A stretch of DNA of 64,000 nt, from the NCBI GenBank assembly GCA_016184105.1, contig JACPDI010000007.1, forward strand, positions 69,287 through 133,286, in the 5' to 3' direction. Within the stretch, counting starts at the first letter, position 1. Every line of letters starts with the position of its first letter. The translations under genes and the position numbers were made by a program. Below the pieces are notes generated by a model. The model saw only the letters and a list, made by a program, of their open reading frames with translations, searched no databases and was not told the origin of the DNA. Shown in pieces: positions 23,865-60,838 of this stretch. This DNA comes from Acidobacteriota bacterium. Its GTDB lineage: Bacteria > Acidobacteriota > Vicinamibacteria > Vicinamibacterales > 2-12-FULL-66-21.

Positions 23865-24833
23865 TCACTTCGCCGGCACGGCGGCCGGCAGTGACACCGG
23901 GGGCAGCGCCTGCTCGATTCGCGCGCGCGCCGGTTCGAGCCACGGCGGCAGGATCAGCGCTTCGCCGAGATGCGCGGGATCCTCGTCCACGGAGAATCCA
24001 GGACCGTCGGTGGCCAGCTCGAACAGCACGCCGCCAGGCTCCTTGAAGTACACGGATTTGAACCAGAACCGATCGATCACCGGAGTGGCGTGCGCCCCCT
24101 CGTGTTCGACCGAGCCGCGTACCTGCAGCTGGTGCTCCTCGTCCGCCACGCGCCACGCGAGGTGGTGCACGCTGCCGACGCCCCATGCGCCGCGACGGGC
24201 CTCCGGGGCTTCGCGGATGTCGAGGACGCCGGCCGCATCGGCAATGCCAAACCGCGTCCATCCGTTGTGGGCGCCCAGGCGCTGAAACCCCAAGGACGAG
24301 GTCAGAAAGCGGGCGGTCGTCTCCGCGTCCCGTTCCCACAGCTGAGCCCCGTAGAGACCGCGGATCTGCCGCTCGGGTGCGACCGTGCTGTGCTCCCACG
24401 GTGTGAACTCGCGCGGCGGCGCGGGCGAGGGTTCCACCAGCGCCACGCGAAGGCCGTGCGGATCGACGAGCGCCAGCGCCCGGTCGGCGAACCGATTCTC
24501 GATCTCGCCGAGCGGGACGCGGTATCCCGAGAGCCGGCCTCCCCAGAATTCGAGGCTGCCGGCCGGGACCTCCAGGCCCACTTCGACGGCGAGCCCATGG
24601 CCAAGCCGCGGCGGGGCAAGCTGCACCCACGGAAAGAACGTCAGGTCCGCGCCCGGATGACCTTCGGCGTCCGCGTAAAACAGGTGGTACGTGCCCGGGT
24701 CGTCCTGGTTGACGGATTTCTTGACGAGCCGCATCCCCAGCACGCCGGCGTAGAAGTCGATGTTTTCCTGCGCGGGCCCGGAGATCGCGGTGATGTGGTG
24801 GATTCCGTTGACCCCGGAATTGACGCGAGACAT
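23865..24833 (-). CDS. Ring-cleaving dioxygenase of the glyoxalase/VOC superfamily (MhqO/MhqE-like)
   Basis: It has GIHHITAISGPAQENIDFYAGVLGMRLVKKSVNQDDPGTYHLFYAD and a second VOC repeat ending in HHLAWRV. It is paired with the esterase, as in the B. subtilis mhqED arrangement. Confidence 0.8.
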   Translation of the reverse strand: MSRVNSGVNGIHHITAISGPAQENIDFYAGVLGMRLVKKSVNQDDPGTYHLFYADAEGHPGADLTFFPWVQLAPPRLGHGLAVEVGLEVPAGSLEFWGGRLSGYRVPLGEIENRFADRALALVDPHGLRVALVEPSPAPPREFTPWEHSTVAPERQIRGLYGAQLWERDAETTARFLTSSLGFQRLGAHNGWTRFGIADAAGVLDIREAPEARRGAWGVGSVHHLAWRVADEEHQLQVRGSVEHEGAHATPVIDRFWFKSVYFKEPGGVLFELATDGPGFSVDEDPAHLGEALILPPWLEPARARIEQALPPVSLPAAVPAK

Positions 24834-31201: not shown

Positions 31202-33376
31202 TTACCACGTCCAGATGAACCGCACGGCGGCGGACTTCGCGGTGTACGGCCGCAGGACGTAGCCCAGCAGGAGGCTGCCCGGCAGGTCGATCCGGTTCAG
31301 CGTCTCTGGGCTCATGGCAAAATCGTCCACGTCGTACCTGTCGTACCAGCCGAGCAGCCCGATCGCGACCCGGCGCGACAGGTGGAACCGCAGATCGCCG
31401 GTCGCAGACGTCAGGTCGTGAGTGATCGCCGGCAGCTGTACCGGCGCCACCAGCGTGCTGTCGGCCGGCAGCCGATACACGTACGTCGCGCGCGAGCGCG
31501 AGTCGTCGAACGACATGCTGACGTCGACCCTCGGCAACAGCCTGAGGAGATCCAGGGAGAAGCCGATCGTCTCGGTGCGGTCGGCGCTGTCGGTCGCCCA
31601 GTCGCGCCGGTGATCGACGATGAGCGCGGTGCCCGGCACCAGGGTGGAGTGCGAGTTCTGCAGCGCCGCAAAGCGCTCGTTCGTGTACGACACGCTCGCC
31701 GCGACACGCGACCCCGGCGTGATGTCGGCGGTCACGGTGTACGACTTGTTCTCGTTGTTCCTCAGCCCCAGGGCGCTGTTCAGGTAGTCGTCCTTCCCGT
31801 ACGACGCGGACGCCGTCAGGCCGAAGGCGTCCACCGGCGCCAGCTGGATCAACGCCGTCACGCGGTCGCGGTCGCGATCGGCGACGTCGAAGTGGCGGAG
31901 CCCGAGCTGTTCGGTCGCCGAGAGCAGCAGATGCTCGTCGAAGCCGGATCCCCGCCGCTGCGAGCGCTCGAGGATCGCGCGGACGGTCACGAAGCCGGCC
32001 GACGAGTCGACCGACGCGCGCACGAGGTCCTCAGTCGTCTTCTGGAAGATGCGGAAGGTGCGATCGTCGGTGTTGCGCGAGTACCCGATCCGCATCGCGG
32101 TGAGCGGCACGGGCGTGAACGACGCGTCGGCGTCGAAGTTGTAGCGCGTGAAGCTCAGGGGTTCGGTCTCGGCACCCTCGTGCACGGTCTGGTCGAACAC
32201 GACGTCGATCGGGGTGTGGAACACGGGCGTGCGATTGTCGAAGTCGTAGGATCGGAACCGTGCGCTGAGGAAGACATACCGCGTCGGCTGCGAGGTGAAC
32301 CCGACGTTGGTCGCCACCGTCCGCGCGTCCCCTTCAAGCGTCTCGCGGGGCAGCGGCGCCGCGGGCACCGCGGTGTTGATCGTCACCGGCAACAACTGCG
32401 CGTCCTGGGTCCACGCGCCGAACGTCATGCTGGCCGTCACGCGGCTGTTGGCCGGCAGCTTCGCCGTGCCGGACGCGGTGATCCCCTGCATGCGGCTGTC
32501 GGGCGGCATCGCCATGCGCCCGCGCGATCCGCCGAGCCCGTTCGAGTAGTTGTTGGAGGCGGTCGAGTCGGTGAGCTTCAGCGGGTTGTCCCACACCAGC
32601 GTGGGCACGTTGTTCTCGAACGCCGATCCCTGGTAGCCCACGCGCACCATGCCGCGCGCGTTGGCCCACTCCACGCCGCCGCTCACGTCGGTCGTGCGCG
32701 TGTCGAGCGGCGCCATGACCTCGACGACGTCCGCGAAGCCGAATGACGCGGTCTGCGGGTACGTCCCGTCGCGCCGTGTGTGCTTCACGCCGAGGCTCAC
32801 GGTGAGCTCGCGTGTCGGGCTGTACGCCAGGTCGACCCTGGCGATATCACGCCGGGAGGTGGCAGCCATCGGCGACGCCGCGCCCGCCGACTGCGACAGG
32901 GTCGCGCGTCCCGCCTGGATCGCCGCGCGCATCGCATCGTCCAGGCGCAGCACGCCTGGCGACTCGCTCGTGTAGAGCGTGCGCGTGTCGCCGCTGATCC
33001 AGAGCGGGATCTGGTCCCACTCGACGGACACGCGGACCTTCGATCCGTTGCGGAAGGTGGCGGACAGCCGCCGGTCTTCCGCGCTCAGATGGTCGCCGCT
33101 GGCATTGAACGTCCAGCCGGTCCCCTGGCGATCGAGCGTGAAGTGCTCGACCACGAGGCCGTCACTGAAGTCGCGGTACCGCTGGAAGCGGTACTTGTCG
33201 CCCGTGACATCGGTGAAGCGGCTGCCGGCGTCGAACGACGCGGCGAAGCCCTGCGGCGCGGCGAGCTGCGCGGCGGAGGGAACGAAGATCTGCTGGCCGG
33301 GGTCGTTCTGCTGCGCCGAGGCCGCCGCGCCCGTGAGAAGAAGTCCGGCTGCGACAAACGTCAGTGGGGTGCGCAT
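31202..33376 (-). CDS. MtrB/PioB-family outer-membrane beta-barrel (decahaem-associated porin)
   Basis: The start MRTPLTFVAAGLLLTGAAASAQ (signal peptide) lies 17 nt after the cytochrome stop. The roughly 724-aa product has alternating beta-strand character and a C-terminal aromatic end (...RFIWTW). The track ORF extension to 34189 overlaps the cytochrome gene in another frame and is rejected. Confidence 0.75.
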   Translation of the reverse strand: MRTPLTFVAAGLLLTGAAASAQQNDPGQQIFVPSAAQLAAPQGFAASFDAGSRFTDVTGDKYRFQRYRDFSDGLVVEHFTLDRQGTGWTFNASGDHLSAEDRRLSATFRNGSKVRVSVEWDQIPLWISGDTRTLYTSESPGVLRLDDAMRAAIQAGRATLSQSAGAASPMAATSRRDIARVDLAYSPTRELTVSLGVKHTRRDGTYPQTASFGFADVVEVMAPLDTRTTDVSGGVEWANARGMVRVGYQGSAFENNVPTLVWDNPLKLTDSTASNNYSNGLGGSRGRMAMPPDSRMQGITASGTAKLPANSRVTASMTFGAWTQDAQLLPVTINTAVPAAPLPRETLEGDARTVATNVGFTSQPTRYVFLSARFRSYDFDNRTPVFHTPIDVVFDQTVHEGAETEPLSFTRYNFDADASFTPVPLTAMRIGYSRNTDDRTFRIFQKTTEDLVRASVDSSAGFVTVRAILERSQRRGSGFDEHLLLSATEQLGLRHFDVADRDRDRVTALIQLAPVDAFGLTASASYGKDDYLNSALGLRNNENKSYTVTADITPGSRVAASVSYTNERFAALQNSHSTLVPGTALIVDHRRDWATDSADRTETIGFSLDLLRLLPRVDVSMSFDDSRSRATYVYRLPADSTLVAPVQLPAITHDLTSATGDLRFHLSRRVAIGLLGWYDRYDVDDFAMSPETLNRIDLPGSLLLGYVLRPYTAKSAAVRFIWTW

Positions 33377-33393: not shown

Positions 33394-34572
33394 TCACCGC
33401 TCGAGGTACTGGCCAGACGGGTGGTTCGACCCGTGGAGATTCGGGTGGCAATTGACGCAGGCGCGTCCGACCAGCCGGTTGTTGCGGTTGGCGAGCGCCA
33501 CGCGGTCGTAGATCGTCGCCGGGTGTCGCGACACGATGTGGCAGCGCTGGCAGAGCATCGGGGCCTTGGCCACGAGCATCCGGTCGTTCGAAGAGCCGTG
33601 CGCGTCGTGGCAGGTCGCGCAGCTCTCCCGCACGGGCGCGTGCTCCCACATGAACGGGCCGCGCTTCTCGGCGTGGCAGCTCAGGCAGGATTCGTTGATC
33701 GTGTTGCCCGCCTTCAGCAGGCGCACGTTCGTCGTGCCGTGCGGGCCGTGGCAGGAGGTGCAGTCCATCTTGCCCTCGCGCACCGGCATGTGCGCCGAGC
33801 GCTGGAGCTTCGCGGCCTTCTCGCGGTGGCATCGCGCGCAGGTGGCGACAATCGTCGCCCCGCGCAGGTGGCCGTCCGTGGATTTCGGATCGTGGATGCT
33901 GTGGCAGCCGGCGCACGGCACGTTGCGCGAGGCATGCACGCTGCCCTGCCACTGCGCGTGCTCGCCGCGGTTGTGGCACGAGAGGCAGAACTCGCTGGCC
34001 TCGCGCGGCGACATCTTGACGAACGGGCGCAGCAGGAGCCCTTTCTCCGCCGGCTCGTCGTCGTGCGCCTGGCCCGGGCCGTGGCAGGTCTCGCAGCCGA
34101 GCGACGCGGCCGGCGTCCGCTCGTCCCACTCGCGGCCGTGCGGCCCTTCGCGGTACGCCTTCAACTGCTTCATGTGGCACCGCGCGCACTTCGCCGTGCC
34201 CGTGTAGGTGAACCTGCGCGTCCGGGGCGCGTCCGGCTCCTCGTCATCGGCCTCGAAAGGATTCGTCGGCTTGGCCGCCTTCTGTCCCGGCGCCGCGCCC
34301 TCTTCTTCCTCTTCTTCCTCCTCGTCCGGATCGAGAAATGGATTGCGTTTCGGCTCCGGCGCGGGCGCCGGTTCCGGTGCGGACGGCGCGGGCTTCGGCG
34401 CCGCCTGGCCCGATGGCGGCGGCTGCGGCGGTGGCGTCTGCGGGGCGGAGAACGCCAGGCTCACCATCGCGGCAAAAGTCCAGCAGATGACCCCCGCGAC
34501 GATCGCGACAGCCGGACGGCTCGGCACCCGCCGAAGCAGGTGCGCCCTCGCGGGCGTGTTGGATGGCGTCAT
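33394..34572 (-). CDS. Periplasmic decahaem c-type cytochrome, MtrA/DmsE/PioA family
   Basis: I counted ten CXXCH motifs: CARCH, CETCH, CLSCH, CAGCH, CARCH, CTSCH, CLSCH, CATCH, CQRCH and CVNCH. It has the family-typical C-terminus HGSNHPSG. I chose the start MTPSNT (GAGGAG RBS, signal peptide). Confidence 0.9.
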   Translation of the reverse strand: MTPSNTPARAHLLRRVPSRPAVAIVAGVICWTFAAMVSLAFSAPQTPPPQPPPSGQAAPKPAPSAPEPAPAPEPKRNPFLDPDEEEEEEEEGAAPGQKAAKPTNPFEADDEEPDAPRTRRFTYTGTAKCARCHMKQLKAYREGPHGREWDERTPAASLGCETCHGPGQAHDDEPAEKGLLLRPFVKMSPREASEFCLSCHNRGEHAQWQGSVHASRNVPCAGCHSIHDPKSTDGHLRGATIVATCARCHREKAAKLQRSAHMPVREGKMDCTSCHGPHGTTNVRLLKAGNTINESCLSCHAEKRGPFMWEHAPVRESCATCHDAHGSSNDRMLVAKAPMLCQRCHIVSRHPATIYDRVALANRNNRLVGRACVNCHPNLHGSNHPSGQYLER

Positions 34573-34620
34573 GATGTGCTCCTCGCGCCGCAGGCCGATG
34601 CGAGCGCGGAAGGATGGAGG

Positions 34621-34636
34621 GCAACTGCCGTGCCTC
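34621..34636 (-). promoter_or_regulatory. Sigma-54 (-24/-12) promoter upstream of the decahaem cytochrome gene
   Basis: The minus strand reads GAGGCACGGCAGTTGC, that is GGCACG-N4-TTGC with exact GG-N10-GC spacing. The GC element is 49 nt upstream of the ATG at 34572. Confidence 0.65.
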
Positions 34637-34774
34637 CCTGTTTGCGGTGGCATCGACTCAGACAACCTGTTTGCCCGTCAGCAGTTGCGAGCGGCAAGTG
34701 GCCGCGGCGCGGTGCGTGCGCTGGCACGGCACGTCCGTGGTTCGGATTCGCGTCCAGATCCGGGACGAGCGGGT

Positions 34775-36175
34775 TCACGCCGCTGCCAGCCTTTCGGCCC
34801 TCGTGGCCACGTCCCGGAACTGGGGACCGACCTCCGCGAGCAATTCGCGATAGACACCGAGTGCCTGCGACTCCTGGCCGATCGCCTCGAGCGTCAGGGC
34901 GAGCTGATAGGCAAGCTCGTGCCCGCCTTCCTCCGTGGCTGGCGGCACCTGCGCGACCCACTCGAGGCACGCAAGCGCGTCCATCGGGGCGCCGCGATCG
35001 CGGTACACGCCCGCGAGGCGCGAGCCGGCGCTCGCGCGCAGGTGCGGCGCGCACATGGCTTCCTCGAGCGATGCGACTGCCGCGTCGAACTGCTGCGACT
35101 CGATCAGGCGCTCCGCCTCCGTGAGCCGCTCCTCCGCGGCAGCCGCCGCCTCTTCGATGAGCGCCGTGCGAATCTCCTCGAAGGCCGAGTCCACGTCGCT
35201 CGCCGGTGCCGGCTTGGGCGGGACGTCCGGCACCGCTTCGCTGACGTCTCGTGCCCGGCTGACCCGCGCCAGCAGCCCGCGATGCGCGGCGGCGTCGGGC
35301 TCGCGCTCGGTCAGATCGACCGCGATGTTGTAGGCCTGTTCCGTGCGCCCGCAGTCGTAGCACGCGCCCGCGAGGCGCGCCTGCGCCGAGATGAGCGCGC
35401 GGTCGAGCCGCCCCTCGACGCCGACGTCGATGAGCTTCTCGAGCGCCTCGATGTGCTGCGGCTGCGAGGCGAGGAACTGCTCGATCGCCGACACGGCGCC
35501 GGTGAAATTGCGACGCGCCACTTCGCCGTCGGCCGCGAGGATCACCTGGCGGAAATCGTACAGGTCGTCATCGACTGCCACCGCCGGTGACGGGTCCGGC
35601 GCCGGCACGACACCGGACTCGACCGCCTCCTGATCAGGCGCCAGGACCGCCGCCCACTCGTCCGCCCACTCGCTGGAACTCGCGGGCATCGCCGCCGCCG
35701 CCGGAACGTCGCGCGGCGGCGGCGGCGCGGGCAGCCGTGTCTCCTCGACGCGCATCGGCTCCGGCGGAGCGTCCGGCTCCACGACCGCGCTCTCGCGTGC
35801 GGCCCTCGCGGTCTCGAGTACCCGTTTGAGGAACGGGCTGACCTGGGCCGATTCGTTGCGCTCGAGTTCGTCCACGCGGCGGCGGGCGGTCTCGTTGTCA
35901 GGCTGGATGCGAAGAATCTTCCGATAGAGGGCGCGCGACTTCGCCGCGAACCCGTCGGCCGCCAGGTGCTCGGCAAGCGACGTGAAGTGCGCGATGGCGG
36001 CGTCCGCCTTGCCGGTGCGAATGTACAAATCCCCCAGCGTGTTGCCGATGCTCCAGTCCTTCGAATCGTTCTGAAACAACTTTTCGTACAGTGTGACCGC
36101 GCCGTCCAGGTCGCCGCGCGTGACGAGGCGGGCCGCCTTGTCGACGAGATCGGAGCGATCCAGGGCGCGAGCCAT
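34775..36175 (-). CDS. TPR-repeat protein
   Basis: The start MARALDRSDL lies 2 nt after the upstream stop. It has repeated TPR-like helical pairs at both ends (GDLDGAVTLYEKL..., ALACLEWVAQ...) and a Pro/Ala-rich middle. Confidence 0.7.
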   Translation of the reverse strand: MARALDRSDLVDKAARLVTRGDLDGAVTLYEKLFQNDSKDWSIGNTLGDLYIRTGKADAAIAHFTSLAEHLAADGFAAKSRALYRKILRIQPDNETARRRVDELERNESAQVSPFLKRVLETARAARESAVVEPDAPPEPMRVEETRLPAPPPPRDVPAAAAMPASSSEWADEWAAVLAPDQEAVESGVVPAPDPSPAVAVDDDLYDFRQVILAADGEVARRNFTGAVSAIEQFLASQPQHIEALEKLIDVGVEGRLDRALISAQARLAGACYDCGRTEQAYNIAVDLTEREPDAAAHRGLLARVSRARDVSEAVPDVPPKPAPASDVDSAFEEIRTALIEEAAAAAEERLTEAERLIESQQFDAAVASLEEAMCAPHLRASAGSRLAGVYRDRGAPMDALACLEWVAQVPPATEEGGHELAYQLALTLEAIGQESQALGVYRELLAEVGPQFRDVATRAERLAAA

Positions 36176-36177
36176 GT

Positions 36178-37161
36178 TCACACTGCCGCGGCCACCCGGC
36201 CGTCCGCGTCCTGCGGCACGGCGCCGGGACCCGCGATGATGGCGTCGACATCCAGCAAGGCGACCGCGTCGCCCGCGACCGAGAAGATTCCGCGCGTGAA
36301 CCACTCGCGGCGCTCGACCTCAGCGTGCCGCCGATCGGCCGCGGTCGCACGATGGAGCGCGACGTCCGCCCCGACGCGGAACGCGAAGAAGCCGCCGCGG
36401 CCGCGACCTCCGGATCGCGCCACCAGGAACCGTTCCGAGCCGTTGACGTCCGCGCCGTGTTCCCCGTTGAACCGCAGGATCGGCACGGCGTGGTCCCGCC
36501 ACCATCCGACCGCATGGATGTGCGGCGCCGCACCCGGCAGCGGGATCCAGGGCAGCGACTGGACGATGCCTCCCACGCGATCCGCGGCCAGGGCGTACCT
36601 CGCTGCGTGCACGCTCGGCAACGCGGCGCTCGTGAACGTCAGCGCCATGCCGGAGGCGACCGCACCCGTCCTCCCGCCCGCTGGCTGCGCGATCGGCGGC
36701 GTGGCGCGGCGCGGCGCGGCGGGCGCCAGCGGATCGATGCCCCGTGGCGAGAGAACGAGGCAGAACACGACGTCCCCCATCCGCAACAGCCCGTCGAACC
36801 ACGCCGAGGGCGTCGCGCCGGCCGCCGCGGGGAGCGGCAGCAGCGCGGGCGATCCGGCAGGAGTGCGCACGATGCGATCGACGAGCAGGCCGAACGACTC
36901 GCCGTCGCCTCGCGTCACGATGACGTAGCGGTCGGCGACCGACGACTCGGGCGCGCGTCCGAACAGTCCCGACAGGCCGTAGACCGGCAGCGTTTCGGCG
37001 CCGTACCGCAACGTGCCGACGCGGTTCGCAGGCCCCGCCCCTTTCTTCACGTATTCCGCGCGGGCGACGACGCGGATGTCGGCGCCGGCGAGCGCGTACT
37101 GTTCCATTCCCACGACGCAGCAGATGAAGCCACCAAGTCCGGATTTCCGTTCACCTGTCAT
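36178..37161 (-). CDS. CheW-like coupling protein with two CheW-type domains (ChpC position)
   Basis: It shares an ATGA overlap with the cheB stop. It has two segments resembling the CheW fold (...YALAGADIRVV...LVDRIV... and ...YALAADRVGGIV...). Only the last 327 codons of track ORF 36178-38154 are used. Confidence 0.65.
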   Translation of the reverse strand: MTGERKSGLGGFICCVVGMEQYALAGADIRVVARAEYVKKGAGPANRVGTLRYGAETLPVYGLSGLFGRAPESSVADRYVIVTRGDGESFGLLVDRIVRTPAGSPALLPLPAAAGATPSAWFDGLLRMGDVVFCLVLSPRGIDPLAPAAPRRATPPIAQPAGGRTGAVASGMALTFTSAALPSVHAARYALAADRVGGIVQSLPWIPLPGAAPHIHAVGWWRDHAVPILRFNGEHGADVNGSERFLVARSGGRGRGGFFAFRVGADVALHRATAADRRHAEVERREWFTRGIFSVAGDAVALLDVDAIIAGPGAVPQDADGRVAAAV

Positions 37162-38219
37162 GACGACTGCCCCCGCATGGCGAGCATCGAGCCGATGACA
37201 TCGGGCGTGCCGACGAAGTCGGCGCCCGCGCGTTCGAGCGCCTGCGTCGGCATGCTGTCGATCACGCAGCTCGAGGGCTCCTGCACGTACGCGTCGCCGC
37301 CGCGCTGCCGCACGCGCTTCAGCCCCTCGGCCCCGTCGCGCCCCATGCCTGACAGCACGACGCCCACGCTCGATGCGCCGTAGCTTTCCGCCGCCGAAAC
37401 CATCGCGAAGTCGATGGAGGGCCGGTACAGTTCCTCTTCTGCCGTCGGCCGCAATTCCAGCCGGCCTCCGGGGCGCACCAGCAGGTGGCGCGAGCCGGGC
37501 GTGACGATGATCGATCCGCGGGCGAGCCCGACCCCCGCGTCCGCCTCTCGGACCGGCAAGCGGGCATAGCGCCCAAGTTCCGCGGCGAAGGCGGTCGTAA
37601 ACGTCGCGGGGAGGTGCTGGACCACCACGCAGGGGATCCGGAAATCGGACGGCAGCTGCGCGAGGAGCTCGCGGAGCGCCGCCGGACCGCCCGTCGAGGC
37701 CCCGATCACGATGATCCCTTCGTGACCTGGCGCGGTCCTCGGGCCGTGCAGGCGCCCGCGCGGGTCGGGGTGACGGACGGGCGGACGCGCGACGGCCCGT
37801 TCCGGTTTCCGCGCATGGCGCGGCCGGACGGTGGCGGCCGTCATGACCTTGCTCACGATCTCCCTGCGCAGCGTCGCGGGGCTGACGGGCGCGCCCGGCG
37901 TGTACTTCAGGACGAAGTCCACCGCTCCCACCTCCAGCGCCCGCAGCGTCGTCGCGGCCGCGCGGCGCGACACGCCGCTCACGACCACGACGGCGGCGGA
38001 GGTTTCGGCCACGATTTGCCGCAGCAGCCCGAGGCCTTCGGCTCCAGGCATCTCGAGGTCCAGCGTGAGCACGTCGGGCGACGTGCGGCGGACGAGATCC
38101 ATCGTCGACGCCGCGTTGTGCGCGGTGCCGACCACCTCGCAGTCGCCGGCGCACTCGAGGTACGAGGCCAGCAGGCGGCAGGTGAATGCCGAGTCGTCGG
38201 CGACGGCCACTCGGATCAC
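37158..38219 (-). CDS. cheB: Protein-glutamate methylesterase CheB (REC + methylesterase)
   Basis: It has the REC motifs IRVAVADDS and DVLTLDLEMPG, and the esterase motifs IGASTGGP, HLP..FT and GMGRDG. Confidence 0.9.
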   Translation of the reverse strand: MIRVAVADDSAFTCRLLASYLECAGDCEVVGTAHNAASTMDLVRRTSPDVLTLDLEMPGAEGLGLLRQIVAETSAAVVVVSGVSRRAAATTLRALEVGAVDFVLKYTPGAPVSPATLRREIVSKVMTAATVRPRHARKPERAVARPPVRHPDPRGRLHGPRTAPGHEGIIVIGASTGGPAALRELLAQLPSDFRIPCVVVQHLPATFTTAFAAELGRYARLPVREADAGVGLARGSIIVTPGSRHLLVRPGGRLELRPTAEEELYRPSIDFAMVSAAESYGASSVGVVLSGMGRDGAEGLKRVRQRGGDAYVQEPSSCVIDSMPTQALERAGADFVGTPDVIGSMLAMRGQSS

Positions 38220-41137
38220 GATGCCTTCCTCTGTGCCGCGCGCGAGGCTTTGATCAGGTCGCCCGCCTGCTGGATCAACGCCTCCTCCTGGAACGGCTTC
38301 ACGATGTAGCCGGTGGCGCCGAGCCCCATGGCTTTCTCGCGATGCTTGTCGCCGCCGCGCGAGGTCAGCATCACGATCGGCACCGAGCGGTACTGGCTCT
38401 GCGCGCGTATCGTCGCCAGGAATTCGTAGCCGTCCATGCGGGGCATCTCGATGTCGAGCAGGATCAGGTCGGGCGGATCCGACGCGCGGTGGATCAGCTC
38501 GAGCGCCTCGACGCCGTCGCGTGCCTGCACCGGGTTCCAGCCGGCCTTCTTGAGCGCGTTCGACAGCACGTGACGCATGCTCAACGAGTCGTCCACCACC
38601 ATCACCGTGTACGACTGCAGCTCGATGGCGGCGGCGCGCGGCGCCGCGGGGCGCACGCGCGGTTGGTCGGCGGTGCCGGCCAGGTCGGTTGGATTGAGGA
38701 TCAGGATGACGGTGCCGTCGCCCAGCAGCGTGGCGCCCCAGACGCCCGTCACGCGCCGGAGATGCGTCCCGAGCGTCTTCACGACCGCATCGCGGCTCTG
38801 CACGATCTCGTCGACGACGAGCGCCATGCGCCGGCCGCCCAGGTTCGCGATGAGCACGGGGCGATTGACGGACGTCTCGGCCGCACGCGGCAGATCGAGC
38901 AGCGACGACAGGTCGCGGAGCGGGTATGTGCGCCCGTCGACCTCCACGACGCGCTCGGTGCCGACCGAGGTGATGGCCGGCGCGTCAGGCCGCGCGATCT
39001 GGAGGACCGCGCCGAGCGGCAGGCCGACGGTCTGCCCGCCCGTGCGCACGAGCAGGATGCGGGTGATCGCCAGCGTCATCGGGACGCGGACGGTCAGCGT
39101 CGCGCCTGCGTTCGGGCGGGAGGCGATGCTCAGCCGGCCGCCGAGCCGCGTGACCTTCGCCTTCACGATGTCGAGGCCCACACCGCGCCCCGAGACCTCG
39201 CTCAGCCGGCGCGCGGTGCTGAAGCCGGGCTCGAACACGAGCGCGATGAGCTCTTCTTCCGAGAGCGTCCCGGCGTCCGCCTCCGACGCGTACCCGCGCT
39301 CGACGGCCGTGCGGCGGATGCGCTCGAGATCCAGGCCGGCGCCGTCGTCTTGAACTTCGATGAGGACGTCGGTGCCCTCGTGAGACGCGCGCACGGCAAT
39401 GCGCCCGCGCGCCGGCTTGCCGGCGGCGAGGCGCTCGGCCGGCGTCTCGATCCCGTGATCGACCGCGTTGCGAAGCAGGTGCAGCAGCGGGTCGCTCATC
39501 TCTTCGAGCAGCGTCTTGTCGAGCGCGACGTTCTCCCCCTCGAGCACGAGATCGGCCGCCTTGCCGCACTCCTCGGCGGTGACGCGCACCGCGCGCTCGA
39601 GCCGTGCCGCCAGCGTGACGAGCGGCACCATGCGGAACTCCATGACCTTGTCCTGGACTTCGCGCGTGAGCCGGCCGAGGCGCGTGAGATCGCCGTCGAA
39701 GTTGCCGATCGTCTCGGAGAGGCGGGTGCTGATCGTGCCGATGTCGCTCGCCGTTTCGGTCATCTCCCGCGACAGCAGGTGAAAGTCGGTGTACCGATCG
39801 AACTCCAGTTCGTCGAAGCCATGGCCCCCCGGCCCGGCCGAGGCCGCGACGTTGCCCGCCAGCGCGCGCACTTCGTAATCGGTCTCGAGCTTGAGCGCGA
39901 GGCGGCGCAGGCGCGCGGTGCTCAGCTTCAACTCGTCCACCTGCTCGACGAGGCCGGCGTAGTGCTGGTCGAACGAGGACCGGTTGATGACGAGCTCGCT
40001 GACCGACCGCACGAGTTCGCCGAGGCGTTCGAACGGCACGCGTACCACCTGCGAGCCGCCCCGACGCCGGTCCTCCGCGTTGCGGCGGCGATCCGGCCGT
40101 GTACGGCGCTCGGGCTCGCGGGGTTCCGCAGCGACAGCGGGTGCTGCCGGCGCGGCGCTGCCAGCGATCGCGCCGGGCGCCTGGCCGGCGGTTGTCGCGA
40201 CGGCCGGCGCCGTGCCCGTCCAGCCGACGGTGCGGTCGTACTCGGCGAGGAGGCGAACGAGGATCTCGCGAAGCGTCGCGGGATCGTCGGGAGGCGAGGC
40301 AATGAGATCGTCCAGCGCGTCGGAGGAACTGGTGATGAGCCGCATCGCCTCTGGAGTGGCGGCGGCGGTGCCGTCGTACAGGCGATCGAGCAGGTCCTCC
40401 ATCCGGTGGGCCAGCCGCGAGGCGGCCTTGTAGCCCACGATGCCCGCCGCCCCTTTGATGGTATGAACCGCGCGACGCAGTTCCTGCAGCGCGTCCCGAT
40501 CGTCGGGCGTCGAGCAGATGTGCGCCGTCAGGCGCGCGATGGCCTGCAGATTCTCCTGGGCCTCCTGCGCGAATACCTCGGCGAGCTCCTGTGGGACGGG
40601 TTCGGCGGGAACCAGGTCCAGGTCCAGGTCGTCATCGCCCCTGGGAGGCGGCGCCGGCGCCGCGGCGGGCGCGTGCTGCTCGAGCCCGCGGCGATCCAGC
40701 TCGATGAGATCGAGCAGCATCGCGTCCGGCTCCTCCGGATTGCAGCCGGCGAAATCCCTGTACGCCTTCGACAGCTCGAGCGCGACGTCGCTGGCGCACT
40801 CGCCGCGGCACGCGGCCTCGACGTACGCGGGACACTTCGGCACCGTCACTCGCAGCAGCGCCAGGACGGGCTCCGGCACGGCGCGCCCTTCGTTGACCGG
40901 CACGTCGAGCATCTCCTCCGCCTGGTTCAGCACGTGGCCGAGGGCGGCCAGTCCGACCATCGATGCCGCGCCCTTGAGCGCGTGGATCAGGCGGAACGCC
41001 TCGTGCGCCGCGGGACTCGGCGCGCCTTCCCGTTCCGCCACGTCGAGCGCCGCGAGCACGCGCGGCACGCTCGAGCGCACTTCCTCGGAGAATGCCGCGA
41101 CCGCGATGATGTCGAGCGGTCTGGTGATCGCCGTCAT
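38216..41137 (-). CDS. Hybrid CheA-type histidine kinase (2 x Hpt - dimerisation - HATPase - CheW - REC), ChpA-like
   Basis: It has Hpt motifs HALKGAASMVG and HTIKGAAGIVG, the kinase motifs DPLLHLLRNAVDHGIE and GRGVGLDIV, a CheW-like region, and a C-terminal REC (VMVVDDS...DLILLDIEMPRMDG...KPF). I chose the start MTAITRPL, which overlaps the cheR stop. Confidence 0.9.
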   Translation of the reverse strand: MTAITRPLDIIAVAAFSEEVRSSVPRVLAALDVAEREGAPSPAAHEAFRLIHALKGAASMVGLAALGHVLNQAEEMLDVPVNEGRAVPEPVLALLRVTVPKCPAYVEAACRGECASDVALELSKAYRDFAGCNPEEPDAMLLDLIELDRRGLEQHAPAAAPAPPPRGDDDLDLDLVPAEPVPQELAEVFAQEAQENLQAIARLTAHICSTPDDRDALQELRRAVHTIKGAAGIVGYKAASRLAHRMEDLLDRLYDGTAAATPEAMRLITSSSDALDDLIASPPDDPATLREILVRLLAEYDRTVGWTGTAPAVATTAGQAPGAIAGSAAPAAPAVAAEPREPERRTRPDRRRNAEDRRRGGSQVVRVPFERLGELVRSVSELVINRSSFDQHYAGLVEQVDELKLSTARLRRLALKLETDYEVRALAGNVAASAGPGGHGFDELEFDRYTDFHLLSREMTETASDIGTISTRLSETIGNFDGDLTRLGRLTREVQDKVMEFRMVPLVTLAARLERAVRVTAEECGKAADLVLEGENVALDKTLLEEMSDPLLHLLRNAVDHGIETPAERLAAGKPARGRIAVRASHEGTDVLIEVQDDGAGLDLERIRRTAVERGYASEADAGTLSEEELIALVFEPGFSTARRLSEVSGRGVGLDIVKAKVTRLGGRLSIASRPNAGATLTVRVPMTLAITRILLVRTGGQTVGLPLGAVLQIARPDAPAITSVGTERVVEVDGRTYPLRDLSSLLDLPRAAETSVNRPVLIANLGGRRMALVVDEIVQSRDAVVKTLGTHLRRVTGVWGATLLGDGTVILILNPTDLAGTADQPRVRPAAPRAAAIELQSYTVMVVDDSLSMRHVLSNALKKAGWNPVQARDGVEALELIHRASDPPDLILLDIEMPRMDGYEFLATIRAQSQYRSVPIVMLTSRGGDKHREKAMGLGATGYIVKPFQEEALIQQAGDLIKASRAAQRKAS

Positions 41138-41997
41138 GGCCGTACCTCTCTGCTCACTCGGCCGACGCGCCGGAACGCCCGGACGCCGGGCAGCGCGACC
41201 GGTTCCAACCCCGCCGGGCACTCGAACGGCGCTTCACCGGGGCCGAGGAGGAGATACCCTCCCGGCGTGAGCCGTGACCCCAGCATCGCGACGAACGGTG
41301 TGACCGCCGGCGGCGCGAAATAGATCAGGACGTTCTGACAGAAGATGACGTCGTGGTTGAGAAAGATGTCGCACGCCGAATAGAGATTGATCGCGAGAAA
41401 CCGCACACGGCGGCACAGCTCCGGATCGATGCCCCATGCCCCGCCGCCCCCGGCGGCTCGAACGAACTTCCGGCGGTACTCGGCCGGGATCGCCGACACG
41501 GCCTTCTCGCTGTACCGCCCGATCCGCGCCGCTTCCACGGTGCGGCGGCTGATGTCGGCCCCCCACACCAGGAACTCTCCGCCGAATGCCGGATCCGACA
41601 TCGCCGTCATCGCGAGCGAGTACGCCTCCTCGCCCGTGGAGCATCCCGCGCTCCACAAACTGAGGAGGTTCCGCCCGATGTCCGGCCGCCGCCGCAGCTC
41701 CGGCAGGATGTGCGTGCGCAGCGCCTCGAATGACGGCGGGTGGCGGAAGAACGAGGTTTCGTGGCTGATCAGCTGATCGATCAGCTCCGTCCACTCGCTC
41801 CCCCCCTTGCTCTCCTCCTCGAGCAGCTCGTAGTACTCGTCGCAGCTGGCCAGCCCGCGCGCGCGCATCCGCGCGGGCACGAGGCCGGCGAGCGCCGAGA
41901 GCTGCGGCTCCCGCAGCGCGAGCCCGCAGTGCCGCAGGAGCAGGTCGCCCCACGGCCCGCAGGACTCCGTGTCGGCCGGCGTCGGGAAGCCGATCAT
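41134..41997 (-). CDS. cheR: Chemotaxis protein methyltransferase CheR (PilK position)
   Basis: It has [12 protein letters not shown], the SAM-binding motif [17 protein letters not shown], and [11 protein letters not shown]. Confidence 0.9.
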
Positions 41998-43886
41998 CGC
42001 GCCGCCGATTCGGCCTGCCTGGCCGCGTCAGCCATCGGCACGACGTAGCCGCTTCCGTTGCCGTTGCCGTTGGTCGGCAGCTTGAACCGCGCGACCGACT
42101 TGTTGAGGCCGTCGGCCAGCGCCGAGAGCGATCCGATCGCGACGGCCGTCTCCTTCGTGCTCGTCGCCGTCGTGCGCGTGACCGAGGACATCTCGTTCAT
42201 CGACCGCGCGATCTGCTGCGACCCGCGCGCCTGCTGCTGCGCGGCGTCGGAGATCGCCTGGATCAGCTCGGCGAGGCGGTTCGACACGCCCTGGATTTCG
42301 GTGAGCGCGACGCCCGCCTCGTTCGCGATGGCCGACCGGTTCACGACCTCCCGCGTCGTGTCTTCCATCGCCGACATGACTTCCGCCGTCTCGCTCTGCG
42401 TCGTCTTGACGAGCATCGCGGCCTTCTTGGTCGCCTCGGTCGCGCGGTCCGCGAGCCGTTCGACTTCTTCGGCGACCACGCCGAACCCGCGGCCCGCCTC
42501 GCCGGCCATCGCCGCCTGGATCGACGCGTTCAGCGCGAGGATGCTCGTGCGGTCCGCGATGTCGCCGATGAGCTCGACGATCTCGCCGATCTCCTGCGAG
42601 CTCTCGCCGAGCCGCTTGATCCGCTTCGCGGTCTCCTGCACCTGGTCGCGGACGGCTTTCATCCCCTCGATCGTGCGGGCGACGGCGCGGGCGCCCTGCT
42701 CCGCGTTCGCGCGCGCCTGCTCGGCGACCGCCGCCGACGAGGACGCGTTTTCAGACACCTGGTTGATCGACGTCGCCATCTCCTCGATCGCGGCCGACGC
42801 CTCGATCGCCTGCGACGCCTGCGCCTCCGTGCCGGAGGCGAGCGACGAGGTGAACGACCGCAGCTCGACGAGCGAGCGGGAGACGTCGTGCGTCGCCCCC
42901 TGCACGTGGCCGATGATGCCCCGCAGCTCGGCGATCATGAAGTTGAAGGAGTCGGCGAGCGCGCCGGTCATGTCCGCGGTGACCTCCGCCTGCGCCGTGA
43001 GGTCGCCGTCCGCCACGCCGCTCACCTCGTCGAGCAGCTTCATGATGGCGGCCTGCATCGCGTCGCGCTCCTGGCGCGACTGCACGAGGGCGACCGTGTT
43101 GTCGAGCATCGTGTTGAGCGACCGGCCCACCATGCCCAGCTCGCTCTTCCCGGGATTCTCGACGCGGCTCGTGAAGTCGCCGACCGTGATGGCGTCGCAC
43201 ACCTTCACGAGCGAGTTCGCTTCATTCAGGATCGGGCCCTGGACGAAGTACTTCATGAACGGCAGGAGGACGACGAACGCCAGCAGCAGCGCGAGGATCA
43301 CGCCCACGTACGCGCGGCCGATCCCCTGCTCCACCTGGCGGCCGCCGGCCGCCATCCGGTCGCGGTACCGGACGAAGAACGCGCTCGACAGCGACTGCAG
43401 CTGGTCGACCGTGGCGCGCATCGCCTTCGCTTCCGGCCCGGTCGGGTCCGCCGCCATGAAGCTGCCGCTCTGCGCGGCCTCGCGCGCGCCCTCGAACTCC
43501 TGCTGGTACGTGGCGAGCGCGGCGCGAATGGCCTTCGCGGTCGCCTGCTCGTCCGGTTCGGTGGCCAGCGAGTCGATTTCCTTCAGGCGCTCGACCGCGT
43601 GTCCGTGCGCCGTTCTCCAGTTCTGCAGCTGGGCCATCGCCTCGCGCGACCGCGGCGCGTCGTCCAGGAAGAACGTGCGCTCGAATCGGACCAGCTCGGC
43701 GACGTGCAGCGCGAACTGCGCGGCGGCGCCCGCCATCTGCGCGTCCTTGTGCACGAGCTGTCTCGCCTGCTGGTCGACGGTCCGGATGCTCCACAGCCCC
43801 GCCGCCGTGCCGCCCGCCAGCATGACGGCCAGCACGGCGACCGTCAGGAGCAGCCGGCTTCTGATTTTCAGGTTCTTGCTTCGCAT
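41994..43886 (-). CDS. Methyl-accepting chemotaxis protein, PilJ-like
   Basis: The start is [14 protein letters not shown] followed by a TM segment. It has a four-helix-bundle-like periplasmic domain, a second TM and a HAMP domain. The segment [35 protein letters not shown] is followed by the conserved signalling hairpin ([34 protein letters not shown]). Confidence 0.9.
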
Positions 43887-44575
43887 GATGCTTCCTCTCT
43901 CCGATCTTCGAACTGCCGGATGTCCGCCGAACGCAGCAGTCGCTCGAGGTCGAGCACGGCGACGAGCCGCTCGCCCACCTGCGACACGCCCGTGAGATAG
44001 GGCGCCAGCGCTCCCTCGATGGGCCCGGACGGGGGCTTCACCGAGTCGAGCGCCACGCCGACGATCTGCTCGACCGAGTCCACGAGCAGGCCCGCCGTGA
44101 ATTCCTCGTCGGCCAGCCGGACGACGAGCAGGCGTCCGGTATAGGGGGAGACCGCCTCGAGCCCGAGGAGCGCTCTCAGGTCGATCACCGACACGACATC
44201 GCCGCGCAGGTTCACCACGCCCCGCACCCAGGCGGGCACGTGGGGCACCGCCGTGATGCCGGGCACGCGCGCGACCTCGGAGACCAGCGCCTGCGAGACG
44301 CCGTACATCGACCCCGCCACGCCAAACAGGATCAGCCGCGTGCGCGGGCTCGCGGCCTCCGCCGGCGCGGCGTCTGCCGCGAGCGGCGCGGCCGCGTCGG
44401 ACGACAGCGCGTCGAGCAACGAACGATCGCCGTCGCCACCGGCAAGCGGCGGCGCTTCCGCCGATTCGCCGGGCGCCGGCGCCGGAGGCGGCATCGCGTC
44501 GCCGGGCGACGCCAGCCAGTCCTCCAGCAGCGACGACGGATCGATCTCCGGCTCGTGATGACGTCGGTCGTCCAT
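43868..44575 (-). CDS. cheW: CheW-like coupling protein (PilI position)
   Basis: The start MDDRRHH shares a TGATG overlap with the cheY stop. The CheW domain reads [25 protein letters not shown]...[19 protein letters not shown]. Confidence 0.85.
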
Positions 44576-44937
44576 CACGACTGTCTCGCCACCGCGGCGA
44601 GCAGATCGGCATCCTGGTAGGGTTTGGCGATGTACTCGTCCGCCCCCTGCTTCATGCCCCAGAACCGATCGCTCTCCTGGTTTTTGCTGCTGACGAGGAT
44701 GATCTTGATGTCGCTCGTTCCCGCCGTCGTCTTGAGCTGCCGGCACACCTGGAAGCCGTTCTTCTTCGGCAGGATGATGTCGAGCACCACGATCGGCGGG
44801 TGGGTCGCCGATGCCTTGTCGATCGCTTCCTCGCCATCGACCGCGGTCGTCACCTCGTACCCGTGCTTCTTGAGCAGCGAGACGAGCATCTGCAGATCCG
44901 TCGGACTGTCATCCACGACGAGCACTTTCTTGGACAT
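44575..44937 (-). CDS. Single-domain response regulator, PilH-like CheY
   Basis: An AAGGAGAGG RBS precedes [14 protein letters not shown]. Further motifs are [12 protein letters not shown] and [23 protein letters not shown], which by recall is close to P. aeruginosa PilH. Confidence 0.88.
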
Positions 44938-46329: not shown

Positions 46330-46735
46330 GCCCGTTCACCACCCGTTCGATGTGCCGCATGAGCCGCGGCAGCTCCACCGGCTTCGTCTGGTAGATGTCC
46401 ACGCCGCGCCGGACCGCCTCCTCCTGCGTCGCCTCAGACCCGTACGCCGTCAGCATCACGACGCACGCGACCGGGCTCCGCAGGCGCGCGTGCTCCGCGA
46501 TGCGCAGCCCCTCGCCGATGCGCCCCGGCGACAGATGGAGATCGGTGATGACGGCGTCGTACTGATGGAGGTCGAGCAGCTGCAATCCCTCTTCGGACCG
46601 CAGCGCGCAATCGACGTCGTAATCGGCGAGCGTGAAGAACGACCGGAGCGCGAGCACCGTCCCGAGCTCGTCGTCGACGATGAGAAGGCGGCTGCGTTGG
46701 ACGACAGGGTGGAGGGCGTCCGAGGCGGTTCCCAT
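46313..46735 (-). CDS. Stand-alone receiver-domain response regulator
   Basis: It has LLIVDDE, AVITDLHLSPG and TKP. I chose the start MGTASD, but no obvious SD precedes it, so the start is uncertain. Confidence 0.75.
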   Translation of the reverse strand: MGTASDALHPVVQRSRLLIVDDELGTVLALRSFFTLADYDVDCALRSEEGLQLLDLHQYDAVITDLHLSPGRIGEGLRIAEHARLRSPVACVVMLTAYGSEATQEEAVRRGVDIYQTKPVELPRLMRHIERVVNGHARRG

Positions 46736-46742: not shown

Positions 46743-46772
46743 CTGCCGGGGCAACCATCATGCCCCCGGCAG
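46743..46772. other. Stem-loop (9-bp perfect stem CTGCCGGGG/CCCCGGCAG, 12-nt loop) in the NtrC-REC intergenic region
   Basis: Read directly. On the minus strand it ends 8 nt before the ATG at 46735. Confidence 0.5.
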
Positions 46773-46872
46773 TTGTCAGGGCGCGCGAACCGCAAGTGCC
46801 GCGCGCGCGGTCAGTTGCCGCGTTCCGGGGGCGCTTTGCCGGGATGCGCGGCGCCGCGCCGGAGTCTGGCGT

Positions 46873-48243
46873 TCACACTTCAGTCCAGATTCTGGACGAC
46901 TTCAGCTTCTGGTACATCGTGCTGCGCGGAATCCCGAGCCGGCGCGCCGTGCGCGGCACGTTGCCCTGCTCTTCTTCCAGCACGCGCTTGATGTGCTGCC
47001 ACTCCAGTTCTTTCAGCGTGCTCGCGTTGGTCGCCGGCATCCCCTTGGCCGGCGGGCAGAACAACCGCAGGTCCGCGCGGCGCAGCACCGGCGACGAGGC
47101 CAGGAGCACGGCGCGCTCGAGCACGTTGCGCAGCTCGCGGACGTTGCCCGGCCACGTGTGGGCGACGAGCGCCTGCTCCGCATCGGGGCCGAGCTGCGGC
47201 ACGGGACGCCGGATGTCGCGCGCCAGCAGCGCGAGCAGGTGCTCGGCGATGGCCGGCACGTCCTCGACGCGGTCGCGGAGCGGCGGCAGCCGCAGCACCA
47301 CCGTGTTAATCCGGTAGTAGAGATCCTCGCGGAAACGTCCTCCAGCAACGAGCCGCGACAGATCGTGGTTGGTCGCCGCGATGAACCGGAGATCGACGCG
47401 TCGCTCGGCGACGTCGCCGAGCCTCCGGAAGCGCTTCTCCTCGACCACCTTCAGCAGCTTCGGCTGCAGCGACATGTCCATGTCGCCGATCTCGTCGAGG
47501 AACATCGTTCCCCGGTGCGCCGCCTCGAGCAGCCCGGGCTTCATGCCGGTCGCCCCGGTGAAGGCGCCCCGCTCGTGCCCGAACAGTTCAGACTCGAGCA
47601 GCTCGCGGGGCAGCCCCGCGCAGTTCAGCTCCACGAGCGACTCGCGCGAGCGGCTGCTCGACTGGTGGATCCACCGGGCCAGCACCCCCTTGCCGGTGCC
47701 CGTCTCCCCTTCGATGAGCACCGGGACCTCGCTCGACGCGACCGACCGCGCGTCGCGCGCCAGCGCCCGCATCGCGGCACTGCGGCACGCGAACAACACG
47801 TCCACCGGCGTCTCGACCCCGCGCGAGCGCGTGGCGTACAGGCGCCGGGAGTTCTGCTGGTGCTCGATGAGGCGCTCGATCAGCACCACGAGCGATCCCA
47901 GCTCCACCGGCTTGGTCAGAAACTGCTCGGCTCCTTCCTTGATGGCGGTGACGGCAAGCTCGATCGACCCGTGTCCCGTCAGCACCAGGACCGGCACGTC
48001 GACGGCATCCGCTTTCAGCCGCTTGAGGAGGTCAACGGCGTTGCCATCGGGGAGCGCGTAGTCGAGCAGCACGACGTCGGGAACGTCCACGTCCAGGCGC
48101 GCGCGCGCGGCTGCGCACGTGTCCGCCTCCTCGACCTCGTAGCCGGTGGCCTCCAGGTACGAGCGCACGCCCAGGCGCACGCTCGCATCGTCATCGACCA
48201 GCAGGATACGGCTCTTCAACACGGGTGACTCCTTGAGCGACAC
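46873..48243 (-). CDS. Sigma-54-dependent response regulator (NtrC family: REC - AAA+ - Fis-type HTH)
   Basis: It has ILLVDDD and VLLDYALPDG, Walker A GETGTGKG, the GAFTGA loop (ERGAFTGA), ESELFGHE, RFREDLYYRIN, and the C-terminal HTH RTARRLGIPRSTMYQKLK. Confidence 0.93.
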   Translation of the reverse strand: MSLKESPVLKSRILLVDDDASVRLGVRSYLEATGYEVEEADTCAAARARLDVDVPDVVLLDYALPDGNAVDLLKRLKADAVDVPVLVLTGHGSIELAVTAIKEGAEQFLTKPVELGSLVVLIERLIEHQQNSRRLYATRSRGVETPVDVLFACRSAAMRALARDARSVASSEVPVLIEGETGTGKGVLARWIHQSSSRSRESLVELNCAGLPRELLESELFGHERGAFTGATGMKPGLLEAAHRGTMFLDEIGDMDMSLQPKLLKVVEEKRFRRLGDVAERRVDLRFIAATNHDLSRLVAGGRFREDLYYRINTVVLRLPPLRDRVEDVPAIAEHLLALLARDIRRPVPQLGPDAEQALVAHTWPGNVRELRNVLERAVLLASSPVLRRADLRLFCPPAKGMPATNASTLKELEWQHIKRVLEEEQGNVPRTARRLGIPRSTMYQKLKSSRIWTEV

Positions 48244-50314: not shown

Positions 50315-50658
50315 CCGCGACTCCCCTCCAAGTCACAGGGCCTGACGTGGCGTGGAGCCGGGCGACGTCAGCGAGCTGCGGGCGCGACCGGATGGTGAAC
50401 TTTCTACGTGAGTAGAAAAGCGTAATCGGTCACGAACGAAGTCTGGATTCTGCACAAGCAATGAGTGGACCGGATGGGCTTGGCGCCGGAGAATGGAGGG
50501 AACGGAATTCCGGCAACGCGCGCGAAATGCCACGGCCGCAAGGGGACGGAGACACGCGTCGTGCGCTCGCGAACGGTGCGGCAGACATCACTGCCGAAAC
50601 TCCGTCAGCGTCGCGCGAGCATTCCAAGTCCTGAATCTGGACAGCGATTGCAGTTGCG

Positions 50659-60643: not shown

Positions 60644-60838
60644 GCAGCAATTGGGCCTTCAGGGCCGCTGCACGAGTGCGCTCGTCGCACGAAAAGCCGA
60701 GCTCGTTCTTTGGCTCGTCTTGCCAGGCGGACTCTTGAAGAAATTTGCAGCCGCATTCTCCAAGCAGTCTCTGTTCAATGGCCTACAAGCAGGTGTGATG
60801 CCCGACTGGTACGCAAAATGCTCCTCTCGACAGTGCCT

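Follow-up and report, generated by a model that had tools for sequence, protein, structure and literature searches.

The mtrA locus and its candidate sigma-54 promoter

We analyzed a window of 64,000 nt, by which we mean the whole stretch of DNA under study (C68:69287-133286), and within it the 202-bp gap that precedes an mtrA-like gene. The host genome comprises 4.24 Mb in 69 contigs, with 68% G+C and 96% completeness. As presented in Table 1, all the genes around this gap are co-directional on the minus strand: the genes for a sensor histidine kinase and an NtrC-family activator come first in transcription order, followed by a Pil-Chp-like chemosensory operon and then, after the gap, by the mtrA-like gene and an MtrB/PioB porin gene. 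The porin gene starts 18 nt past mtrA (PF11854, E = 8e-86) and is followed by two small open reading frames. A DmsE-family decahaem cytochrome gene directly followed by an MtrB/PioB porin gene, both scoring above their family cut-offs, corresponds to the MtrAB/PioAB porin-cytochrome module. The gap itself contains a -24/-12 element of the sigma-54 class and, further upstream, a palindrome that is a candidate enhancer, or upstream activating sequence (UAS); the mtrA-like gene is the first gene that this predicted promoter would serve. The genes of the cluster were annotated with Pfam and NCBIfam in addition to a codon-usage gene caller. For the genome-wide counts we used our own simple codon log-odds caller, whose result is approximate (3497 genes, 88.8% coding, hence 11% intergenic DNA).

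An earlier note on this DNA, made from the sequence alone, had described a near-consensus sigma-54 promoter on the minus strand (GGCACG-N4-TTGC, with GG-N10-GC spacing), located 49 nt from the ATG and followed by a GAGGAG ribosome-binding site. Re-reading the sequence, we found AGGCACGGCAGTTGCC from 34635 to 34620, a distance of 49 nt between the -12 C (34621) and the A of the mtrA ATG (34572), and GAGGAG at 34584-34579, all as described. The term near-consensus was appropriate for the 10-base core, which is exact, but not for positions -26 (A) and -11 (C). Transcription is predicted to start near 34609. In a scan of the 202-bp gap, no sigma-70-like promoter, intrinsic terminator or Rfam RNA was found.

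To score the element, we used a sigma-54 matrix that was modelled at first on the published consensus and later retrained with the best sites of the genome itself; the candidate site was excluded from the training set and both strands were scanned. With the first matrix, 93 of the 129 matches of at least 12 bits were intergenic. The pattern GGCAC-N5-TTGC was present at 46 sites genome-wide, 41 of them intergenic (89%) and 33 no more than 300 nt upstream of a gene on the same strand. Changing the spacing to N4 gave 41 sites (9 intergenic, 1 correctly placed), and changing it to N6 gave 24 sites (4 intergenic, 1 correctly placed). The more specific pattern GGCACG-N4-TTGC was correctly placed in seven of seven cases. 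The candidate obtained 12.5 bits with the genome-trained matrix, which ranked it 137th overall and 104th among the intergenic matches, a middle rank despite the perfect core because of the A at -26 and the C at -11. In its score band (12-13 bits), we counted 24 intergenic matches where about 3 were expected from the 22 intragenic matches. This comparison with the genome background, which the earlier note had proposed as a check, places the promoter match far above chance in this genome. The genome also encodes rpoN (on contig C13) and about 39 complete activator genes with a full PF00158 domain.

We compared the locus with its orthologue in a genome of the same genus (G001), in which the gene order is identical across the whole cluster and MtrA shares 75% amino-acid identity. 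The two gaps align only in blocks, namely a block after the TPR stop codon, the -24/-12 element and part of the 5' leader. The promoter is kept in G001 as GGGCATGACCGTTGCC, the elements aligning as GGGCATGACCGTTGCCCT and AGGCACGGCAGTTGCCCT with the conserved letters GG...GTTGCCCT, and its distance to the ATG is 51 nt instead of 49 nt. By contrast, the spacer between enhancer and promoter is no more alike in the two genomes than shuffled sequence (z = 0.7). Among strains, represented by the Logan contigs of eight metagenome runs, we observed 12 variable sites in the gap and none in the promoter core or the palindrome.

Two minor features of the gap were also recorded. In the predicted 5' leader, the block 34591-34606 (minus strand) is kept between the window and G001 (GCGCTCGCATCGGCC and GCGCACGCATCGACC) while the rest of the gap has diverged, and it may pair with a stretch just 5' of the ribosome-binding site. 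On the plus strand, inverted promoter halves, both exact, lie upstream of the element (GCAGTTGC at 34681-34688 and GGCACGGCA at 34723-34731); they form no promoter on that strand and may be due to chance in G+C-rich DNA.

Sigma-54 sites recur upstream of MtrA homologues in the order. At a threshold of 11 bits, a sense upstream site was detected for 15 of 37 MtrA-homologue loci, compared with 6 of 111 control stretches, taken upstream in antisense and downstream on both strands (Fisher P = 1.4e-6). As a baseline, 3.4% of all the genes of the host genome have such a site within 300 nt. At some of the loci that lack a site, mtrA is not the first gene of its operon but follows a small cytochrome gene. 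The host genome has five MtrA-like genes; the paralogue at C36:93455-94435 is preceded, at 65 nt, by a sigma-54 element of its own, GGGCACGAGTGTTGCC (C36:94500-94515, minus strand), and two activator genes are found near another paralogue, C36:130087-130848. With sites before 15 of 37 loci and before a paralogue, sigma-54 control seems to be a recurring trait of MtrA-type conduits in this clade, and it may be the usual control of MtrAB-type conduits in the order. Overall, the -24/-12 element is very probably a real sigma-54 promoter of mtrA-mtrB.

Table 1. Position of the genes and sequence elements of the window that are discussed in the text.
Feature	Position	Strand	Remark
Sensor histidine kinase gene	48191-50314	minus	first in transcription order
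NtrC-family activator gene	46873-48243	minus	after the kinase gene
REC protein gene	46313-46735	minus	heads the chemosensory operon
TPR-REC protein gene	44965-46329	minus	
REC protein gene	44575-44937	minus	
CheW gene	43868-44578	minus	
MCP gene	41994-43886	minus	
CheR gene	41134-41997	minus	
Hybrid CheA gene	38216-41221	minus	
CheB gene	37158-38219	minus	
CheW gene	36178-37107	minus	
TPR protein gene	34775-36181	minus	ends the chemosensory operon; 202-bp gap, then mtrA-like gene
mtrA-like gene, DmsE-family decahaem cytochrome	33394-34572	minus	TIGR03508 254.5 bits (cut-off 192.2)
MtrB/PioB-family outer-membrane porin gene	31202-33376	minus	TIGR03509 241.4 bits (cut-off 240.05)
Putative -24/-12 promoter element AGGCACGGCAGTTGCC	34620..34635	minus	GG 34634-34633, GC 34622-34621, GG-N10-GC
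Ribosome-binding site GAGGAG	34579..34584	minus	6 nt 5' of the ATG at 34572
Candidate enhancer (UAS) palindrome GTCCCGGATCTGGAC	34752..34766	minus	centre 34759, 125 bp upstream of the first -24 G
Third half-site ACGGAC	34733..34738	minus	13 nt after the palindrome; CCAGAC or CAGAC in six other instances
Second composite enhancer (candidate) GTCCAGAATCTGGAC-N13-CCAGAC	46864..46897	minus	overlaps the 3' end of the activator gene; palindrome 46897..46883
Second sigma-54 element (putative) GGGCATGATGGTTGCC	46750..46765	minus	126 bp after the enhancer centre; heads the REC/Pil-Chp-like chemosensory operon
Third palindrome GTCCAGATTCAGGAC	50628..50642	minus	upstream of the kinase gene; no third half-site; position conserved in G001
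Proximal repeat copy GCAAACAGG	34637..34645	minus	abuts the -24 element; G>A at 34640 in strain run X7
Distal repeat copy GCAAACAGG	34666..34674	minus	C>G at 34666 in runs X7 and X14

A composite palindrome at a fixed distance and the activator beside it

The palindrome GTCCCGGATCTGGAC starts 9 nt past the TPR stop codon and is identical in G001, and the stretch 34723-34770 that surrounds it has no variable site among the eight metagenome runs. A search for CGTCCCGGATCTGGACG with up to three mismatches had returned mostly intragenic noise; the signal emerged after a second copy was spotted by eye and the consensus was re-centred. The second copy belongs to a composite site at the 3' end of the activator gene and lies upstream of another sigma-54 element, which heads the chemosensory operon and is conserved in G001 as GGGCACGAGGGTTGCC. 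When the palindromes were aligned, a third half-site, CCAGAC or CAGAC, was found 13-14 nt further on in the functional-looking instances. With at most one mismatch to GTCCAGAATCTGGAC, the genome contains only the copies at 46883-46897 and 50628-50642, the mtrA copy (34752-34766) having two mismatches. These three palindromes are the only GTCC-N7-GGAC sites of the genome with an AGAWTCT-like centre; all of them lie within 16 kb around the activator gene and all are conserved in position in G001. In the 4.24 Mb there are exactly two matches to the composite pattern GTCC-N7-GGAC-N14-CRGAC, both on the coding strand, at the mtrA and chemosensory promoters.

We then measured how far the centre of the palindrome lies from the -24 GG, counting to its first G. 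The distance was 125 bp at mtrA and 126 bp at the chemosensory operon in the host genome (G000), 126 bp and 128 bp at the corresponding promoters of G001, 126 bp at cheB of G013, and 129 bp at cheB and 126 bp at a kinase-like gene of G350, the last two being more distant genomes. The composite site therefore keeps a geometry of 125-129 bp in seven instances from four genomes, always beside the same activator lineage. Since sigma-54 matches of at least 9 bits arise at about 9e-5 per position and strand, these seven coincidences cannot be due to chance. Most promoters of this set have a base other than T at -26, and TTGCC or TTGCG at -12/-11. The bare pattern GTCC-N7-GGAC-N14-CAGAC gave 37 matches in 112 genomes of the family, against 19 for the reversed control, and an AGAWTCT-like centre was present only in those of G000, G001 and G013, the pattern being too loose outside the lineage. 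Taken together, a conserved palindromic site within 80-150 bp upstream of -24 is common to the promoters associated with one activator, and GTCCCGGATCTGGAC is probably the enhancer of the mtrA sigma-54 promoter.

The possibility that the mtrA and chemosensory promoter regions are duplicates of each other was considered and rejected, their spacers aligning no better than shuffled sequence (z = 0.8). At the chemosensory promoter, the first REC gene has its ATG (46735) only 16 nt past the -12 C (46751), as is also the case in G001; because of this short interval, the operon would have a leaderless or near-leaderless mRNA, or else its start codon is mis-called.

The third palindrome, upstream of the kinase gene, is not accompanied by a canonical -24/-12 element at the standard distance of 125-129 bp. 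TGGCATTTCGCGCGCG is located at 104 bp and CGGTCCACTCATTGCT at 164 bp, and the best-scoring sites lie at 164 bp in the window (8.1 bits) and at 144 bp in G001 (9.3 bits). This palindrome may be an autoregulatory operator. Its flanks are kept in G001 (gcgctgacgcaaYtgca), and a degenerate copy, GTGCAGAATCCAGAC, is located 187 bp downstream (50441-50455, minus strand).

The activator is predicted to contain the domains PF00072 (REC), PF00158 (AAA+), PF25601 and PF02954 (HTH_8, Fis-type), with a GAFTGA loop, and is the only protein of the cluster that matches a DNA-binding domain model (HTH_8). Its scores are below the NCBIfam equivalog cut-offs for AtoC (370.8; cut-off 714), NtrC (366.7; 558.6) and ZraR (321; 760), which classes it by profile as an NtrC-family member and not as a named NtrC, AtoC or ZraR orthologue. 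The periplasmic CXXCH that the earlier note had attributed to the partner kinase was located as a CRTCH haem-c motif at residues 225-229, between two hydrophobic transmembrane helices. The activator had also been presented as the only one of the cluster. It is the only complete one in the window, but the genome has about 38 others, and a remnant of a second activator gene is present at 52743-53312 (minus strand), with the AAA+ lid and HTH_8 only and no ATPase core.

Among about 460 genomes searched, orthologues of the activator were present in only three others. That of G001 (83% identity) is on the same contig as mtrA and at an equal distance from it; those of G350, a genome of a different family, and G013 share 67% and 65% identity, respectively. 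The palindrome adjoins the orthologue in all three genomes. In G013 and G350, which belong to two other genera, the palindrome and a CAGAC half-site lie 126-129 bp upstream of sigma-54 elements beside the orthologues, and the genes behind these promoters encode CheB, CheA, CheW, CheR, CheD, CheY and CheX; no MtrAB was found near the orthologues of these two genomes. A scan of metagenome contigs for closer orthologues returned only distant relatives (56-59% identity). These observations suggest that the local activator is the likely binder of the palindrome. The chemosensory cluster was likely its original regulon, to which the adjacent mtrAB would have been added later, by the gain of an enhancer and a sigma-54 promoter in the genus of the window.

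Proposed mechanism and competing explanations

From this combination of elements, the best explanation overall is that the 202-bp gap holds a sigma-54-dependent, enhancer-activated promoter of the mtrA-mtrB operon, which we consider likely. What the sequence shows directly is the set of elements, with their genome-wide specificity, fixed spacing and conservation, and the presence of rpoN and of an activator that has a GAFTGA loop and an HTH; the steps below are a proposal built on it. In such a mechanism, sigma-54 RNA polymerase would bind the -24 GG and -12 GC (34634-34621) in a closed complex unable to open alone. The haem-c sensor kinase, reporting a signal that we infer to be the redox state or a haem ligand, would presumably phosphorylate the activator encoded 12 kb upstream. 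The activator would then bind GTCCCGGATCTGGAC-N13-ACGGAC, centred 125 bp upstream, and contact the closed sigma-54 complex by looping of the DNA, which an IHF-type bend in the spacer may help; ATP hydrolysis would open the mtrA promoter. The same activator would open the chemosensory promoter with a similar geometry, so that conduit and sensory pathway would be induced together. Thus the wiring of promoter to activator put forward in the earlier note finds support in the sequence, but through the composite palindromic site 125 bp upstream and not through the direct repeats discussed below.

Several points weigh against this explanation. The promoter departs from the consensus at -26 and -11 and its genome-trained score is of middle rank; the starting matrix was only modelled on the published consensus, and the gene calls of our simple caller are approximate. 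The third half-site at mtrA is ACGGAC and not CCAGAC. The lack of strain substitutions in the 31 nt of the elements is not significant alone (P ~0.14). The linkage between activator and MtrAB is seen in only one other genome, G001, the orthologues of G013 and G350 being accompanied only by Che genes, and the assignment of this activator among about 39 relies on proximity and co-occurrence. Finally, no RNA run was found to contain the stretch, and the start site and the rpoN dependence are predictions.

The alternative that survives best, though an improbable one, is a genuine sigma-54 promoter that answers to a different activator, out of the roughly 38 that the genome has besides the local one; the palindrome would then be an operator bound by some other factor, or an RNA hairpin that ends the chemosensory operon. 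The number of activators in the genome speaks for it, as do the sites upstream of the kinase gene, which have no canonical promoter at the standard distance; against another activator, there is the restriction of the motif to the neighbourhood of this activator lineage. The position of the palindrome, 9 nt past the TPR stop codon, and its potential 5-7-bp stem would suit a hairpin. No U-tract follows this stem, however, and the terminator scan was empty, while the fixed distance of 125-129 bp in seven instances, the conserved letters of the loop and the extra half-site would all be left unexplained.

We also examined the direct repeats, which the earlier note had seen as activator sites phased 30 bp apart. 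The repeat CCTGTTTGC is indeed present twice on the plus strand, the first copy at 34637-34645 as described, but the second copy is at 34666-34674 and not at 34667-34675, and the measured spacing is 29 bp. A reading of the two GCAAACAGG copies as phased sites of the activator or of another regulator just upstream of -24 is very unlikely, even if an exact 9-nt repeat does exist in the gap. When the 139-nt stretch is resampled with a first-order Markov model, about 10% of the resamples contain a repeat of this kind (P ~0.10). The repeat is not kept in G001, and both copies are substituted in sister strains (at 34640 and 34666). The 9-mer has 32 copies in the genome, mostly intragenic and with no link to sigma-54 sites. 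Moreover, counted from the predicted start, the copies are at about -27 to -65, a position atypically close for an NtrC-class enhancer. At the place of the distal copy, G001 has an IHF-like sequence, ATCAACAGCTTA, which differs from the IHF core WATCAANNNNTTR by one mismatch, and with two IHF-like genes in the genome this copy might overlap a bending site; the sequence of the window itself has 3 mismatches in 9, and the IHF reading of the distal copy appears weak. Most likely, the GCAAACAGG direct repeats are incidental spacer sequence.

Least probable of all is a fortuitous -24/-12 match, with mtrAB being read through from the chemosensory operon or having a promoter that escaped recognition: the genes are co-directional across a gap of only 202 bp and about 12% of the intergenic matches in the score band are expected by chance, but the orthologue has kept the element and not the spacer, correctly placed matches number 33 versus 1 in the wrong-spacing controls, the element is paired with an enhancer-like site at the canonical distance, and sigma-54 sites recur before MtrA homologues.

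Beyond the enhancer-activated promoter of mtrA-mtrB itself, a wider interpretation can be offered more tentatively, as somewhat short of an even chance. The haem-c kinase and the activator may form, in one genus, a 'seek and respire' regulon in which the Pil-Chp-like pathway and MtrAB are co-induced through two promoters of rigid geometry, MtrAB having been recruited by an enhancer-promoter module onto an ancestral chemosensory regulon, in an order where sigma-54 is perhaps usual for such conduits.

Comparison with known systems and further observations

Classical examples of NtrC-class control are E. coli glnAp2 with NtrC and the NifA-dependent nif promoters with a single TGT-N10-ACA site. 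In common with these systems, the mtrA locus has a -24 GG/-12 GC element, a palindromic candidate activator site about 100-150 bp upstream, a REC, AAA+ (GAFTGA) and Fis-type HTH activator with a kinase encoded nearby, and possibly an IHF-type bend in the spacer. It differs in having one palindrome and one extra half-site instead of two full sites, in the very rigid distance between palindrome and GG (125-129 bp), and in its apparent targets, which are a chemosensory operon and an electron conduit and not nitrogen genes. The architecture is thus classical NtrC-class and the type of element ordinary. What is new here is the phylum, the type of conduit (MtrAB/PioAB), the sequence of the putative enhancer with its rigid geometry, and its pairing with a Pil-Chp-like chemosensory operon. 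We know of no described site that matches GTCCAGAATCTGGAC-N13-CCAGAC.

To our knowledge, Shewanella and Rhodopseudomonas are the main organisms in which the control of MtrAB/PioAB/MtoAB-type conduits has been investigated, and a text search of the literature found nothing on this subject. The mtrCAB genes of Shewanella oneidensis are controlled by cAMP-CRP and pioABC of Rhodopseudomonas palustris by FixK, that is, by sigma-70 promoters under CRP/FNR-type activators. The locus described here shares with them a homologous decahaem cytochrome and an MtrB/PioB porin, both above the family cut-offs; the predicted promoter, on the other hand, is of the sigma-54 class, with sites before about 40% of the MtrA-homologue loci in the order.

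A precedent for sigma-54 at electron-transfer genes is the metal-respiring bacterium Geobacter sulfurreducens, in which the RpoN regulon includes extracellular electron transfer genes and PilR-pilA, omcB rose on RpoN over-expression, the sigma-54 consensus is TTGGCACGGTTTTTGCT, and activator genes adjoin their target promoters, such as PilR next to pilA (PMC2725144). Sigma-54 elements at electron-transfer genes and an activator near its target promoter are common to both systems, as predicted from sequence in our case. The differences are the phylum (Acidobacteriota, Vicinamibacterales-like), the MtrAB/PioAB-type pair in place of the Omb-Oma-Omc type, and the specific enhancer, by which a single haem-sensor two-component system would govern the conduit along with a Pil-Chp-like chemosensory operon.

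The locus offers a circuit that is open to reconstitution, with a kinase predicted to bear a periplasmic haem, an activator, a 34-bp candidate enhancer, a sigma-54 promoter and a conduit. It suggests which signal, redox state or a haem ligand, could switch on extracellular electron exchange in these bacteria, and it suggests co-regulation of chemosensing and conduit. The enhancer motif could be used to find the regulon in other genomes, and the locus would provide an example of regulon growth through the gain of an enhancer-promoter module.

Acidobacteriota are abundant in soils and aquifers and poorly tractable. The closest named relatives of the window proteins are encoded by metagenome-assembled genomes of Vicinamibacterales/Acidobacteriota, and the host itself is an uncultured bacterium represented solely by a metagenome-assembled genome. 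The public runs that contain the window come from metagenomes of groundwater and sediment. Several independent studies of such metagenomes (runs X3-X18) include sister populations with about 97-98% identity over window positions 34450-34950, from which the host organism seems to be widespread in aquifer sediments.

Two other sigma-54-like sites were recorded in the window. A strong one, TGGTACGCAAAATGCT, at 60807-60822 on the plus strand, scores 13.4-15.4 bits; 17 nt separate it from the start codon (ATG) of a DUF6766 gene (60839-61558), which is followed by a FAD/Rieske oxidoreductase gene. The other, TGGCATTGCCGATGCG (24234-24249, minus strand; 13.9 bits), is located within the predicted gene 23865-24833 and is either an internal promoter or an expected intragenic false positive.

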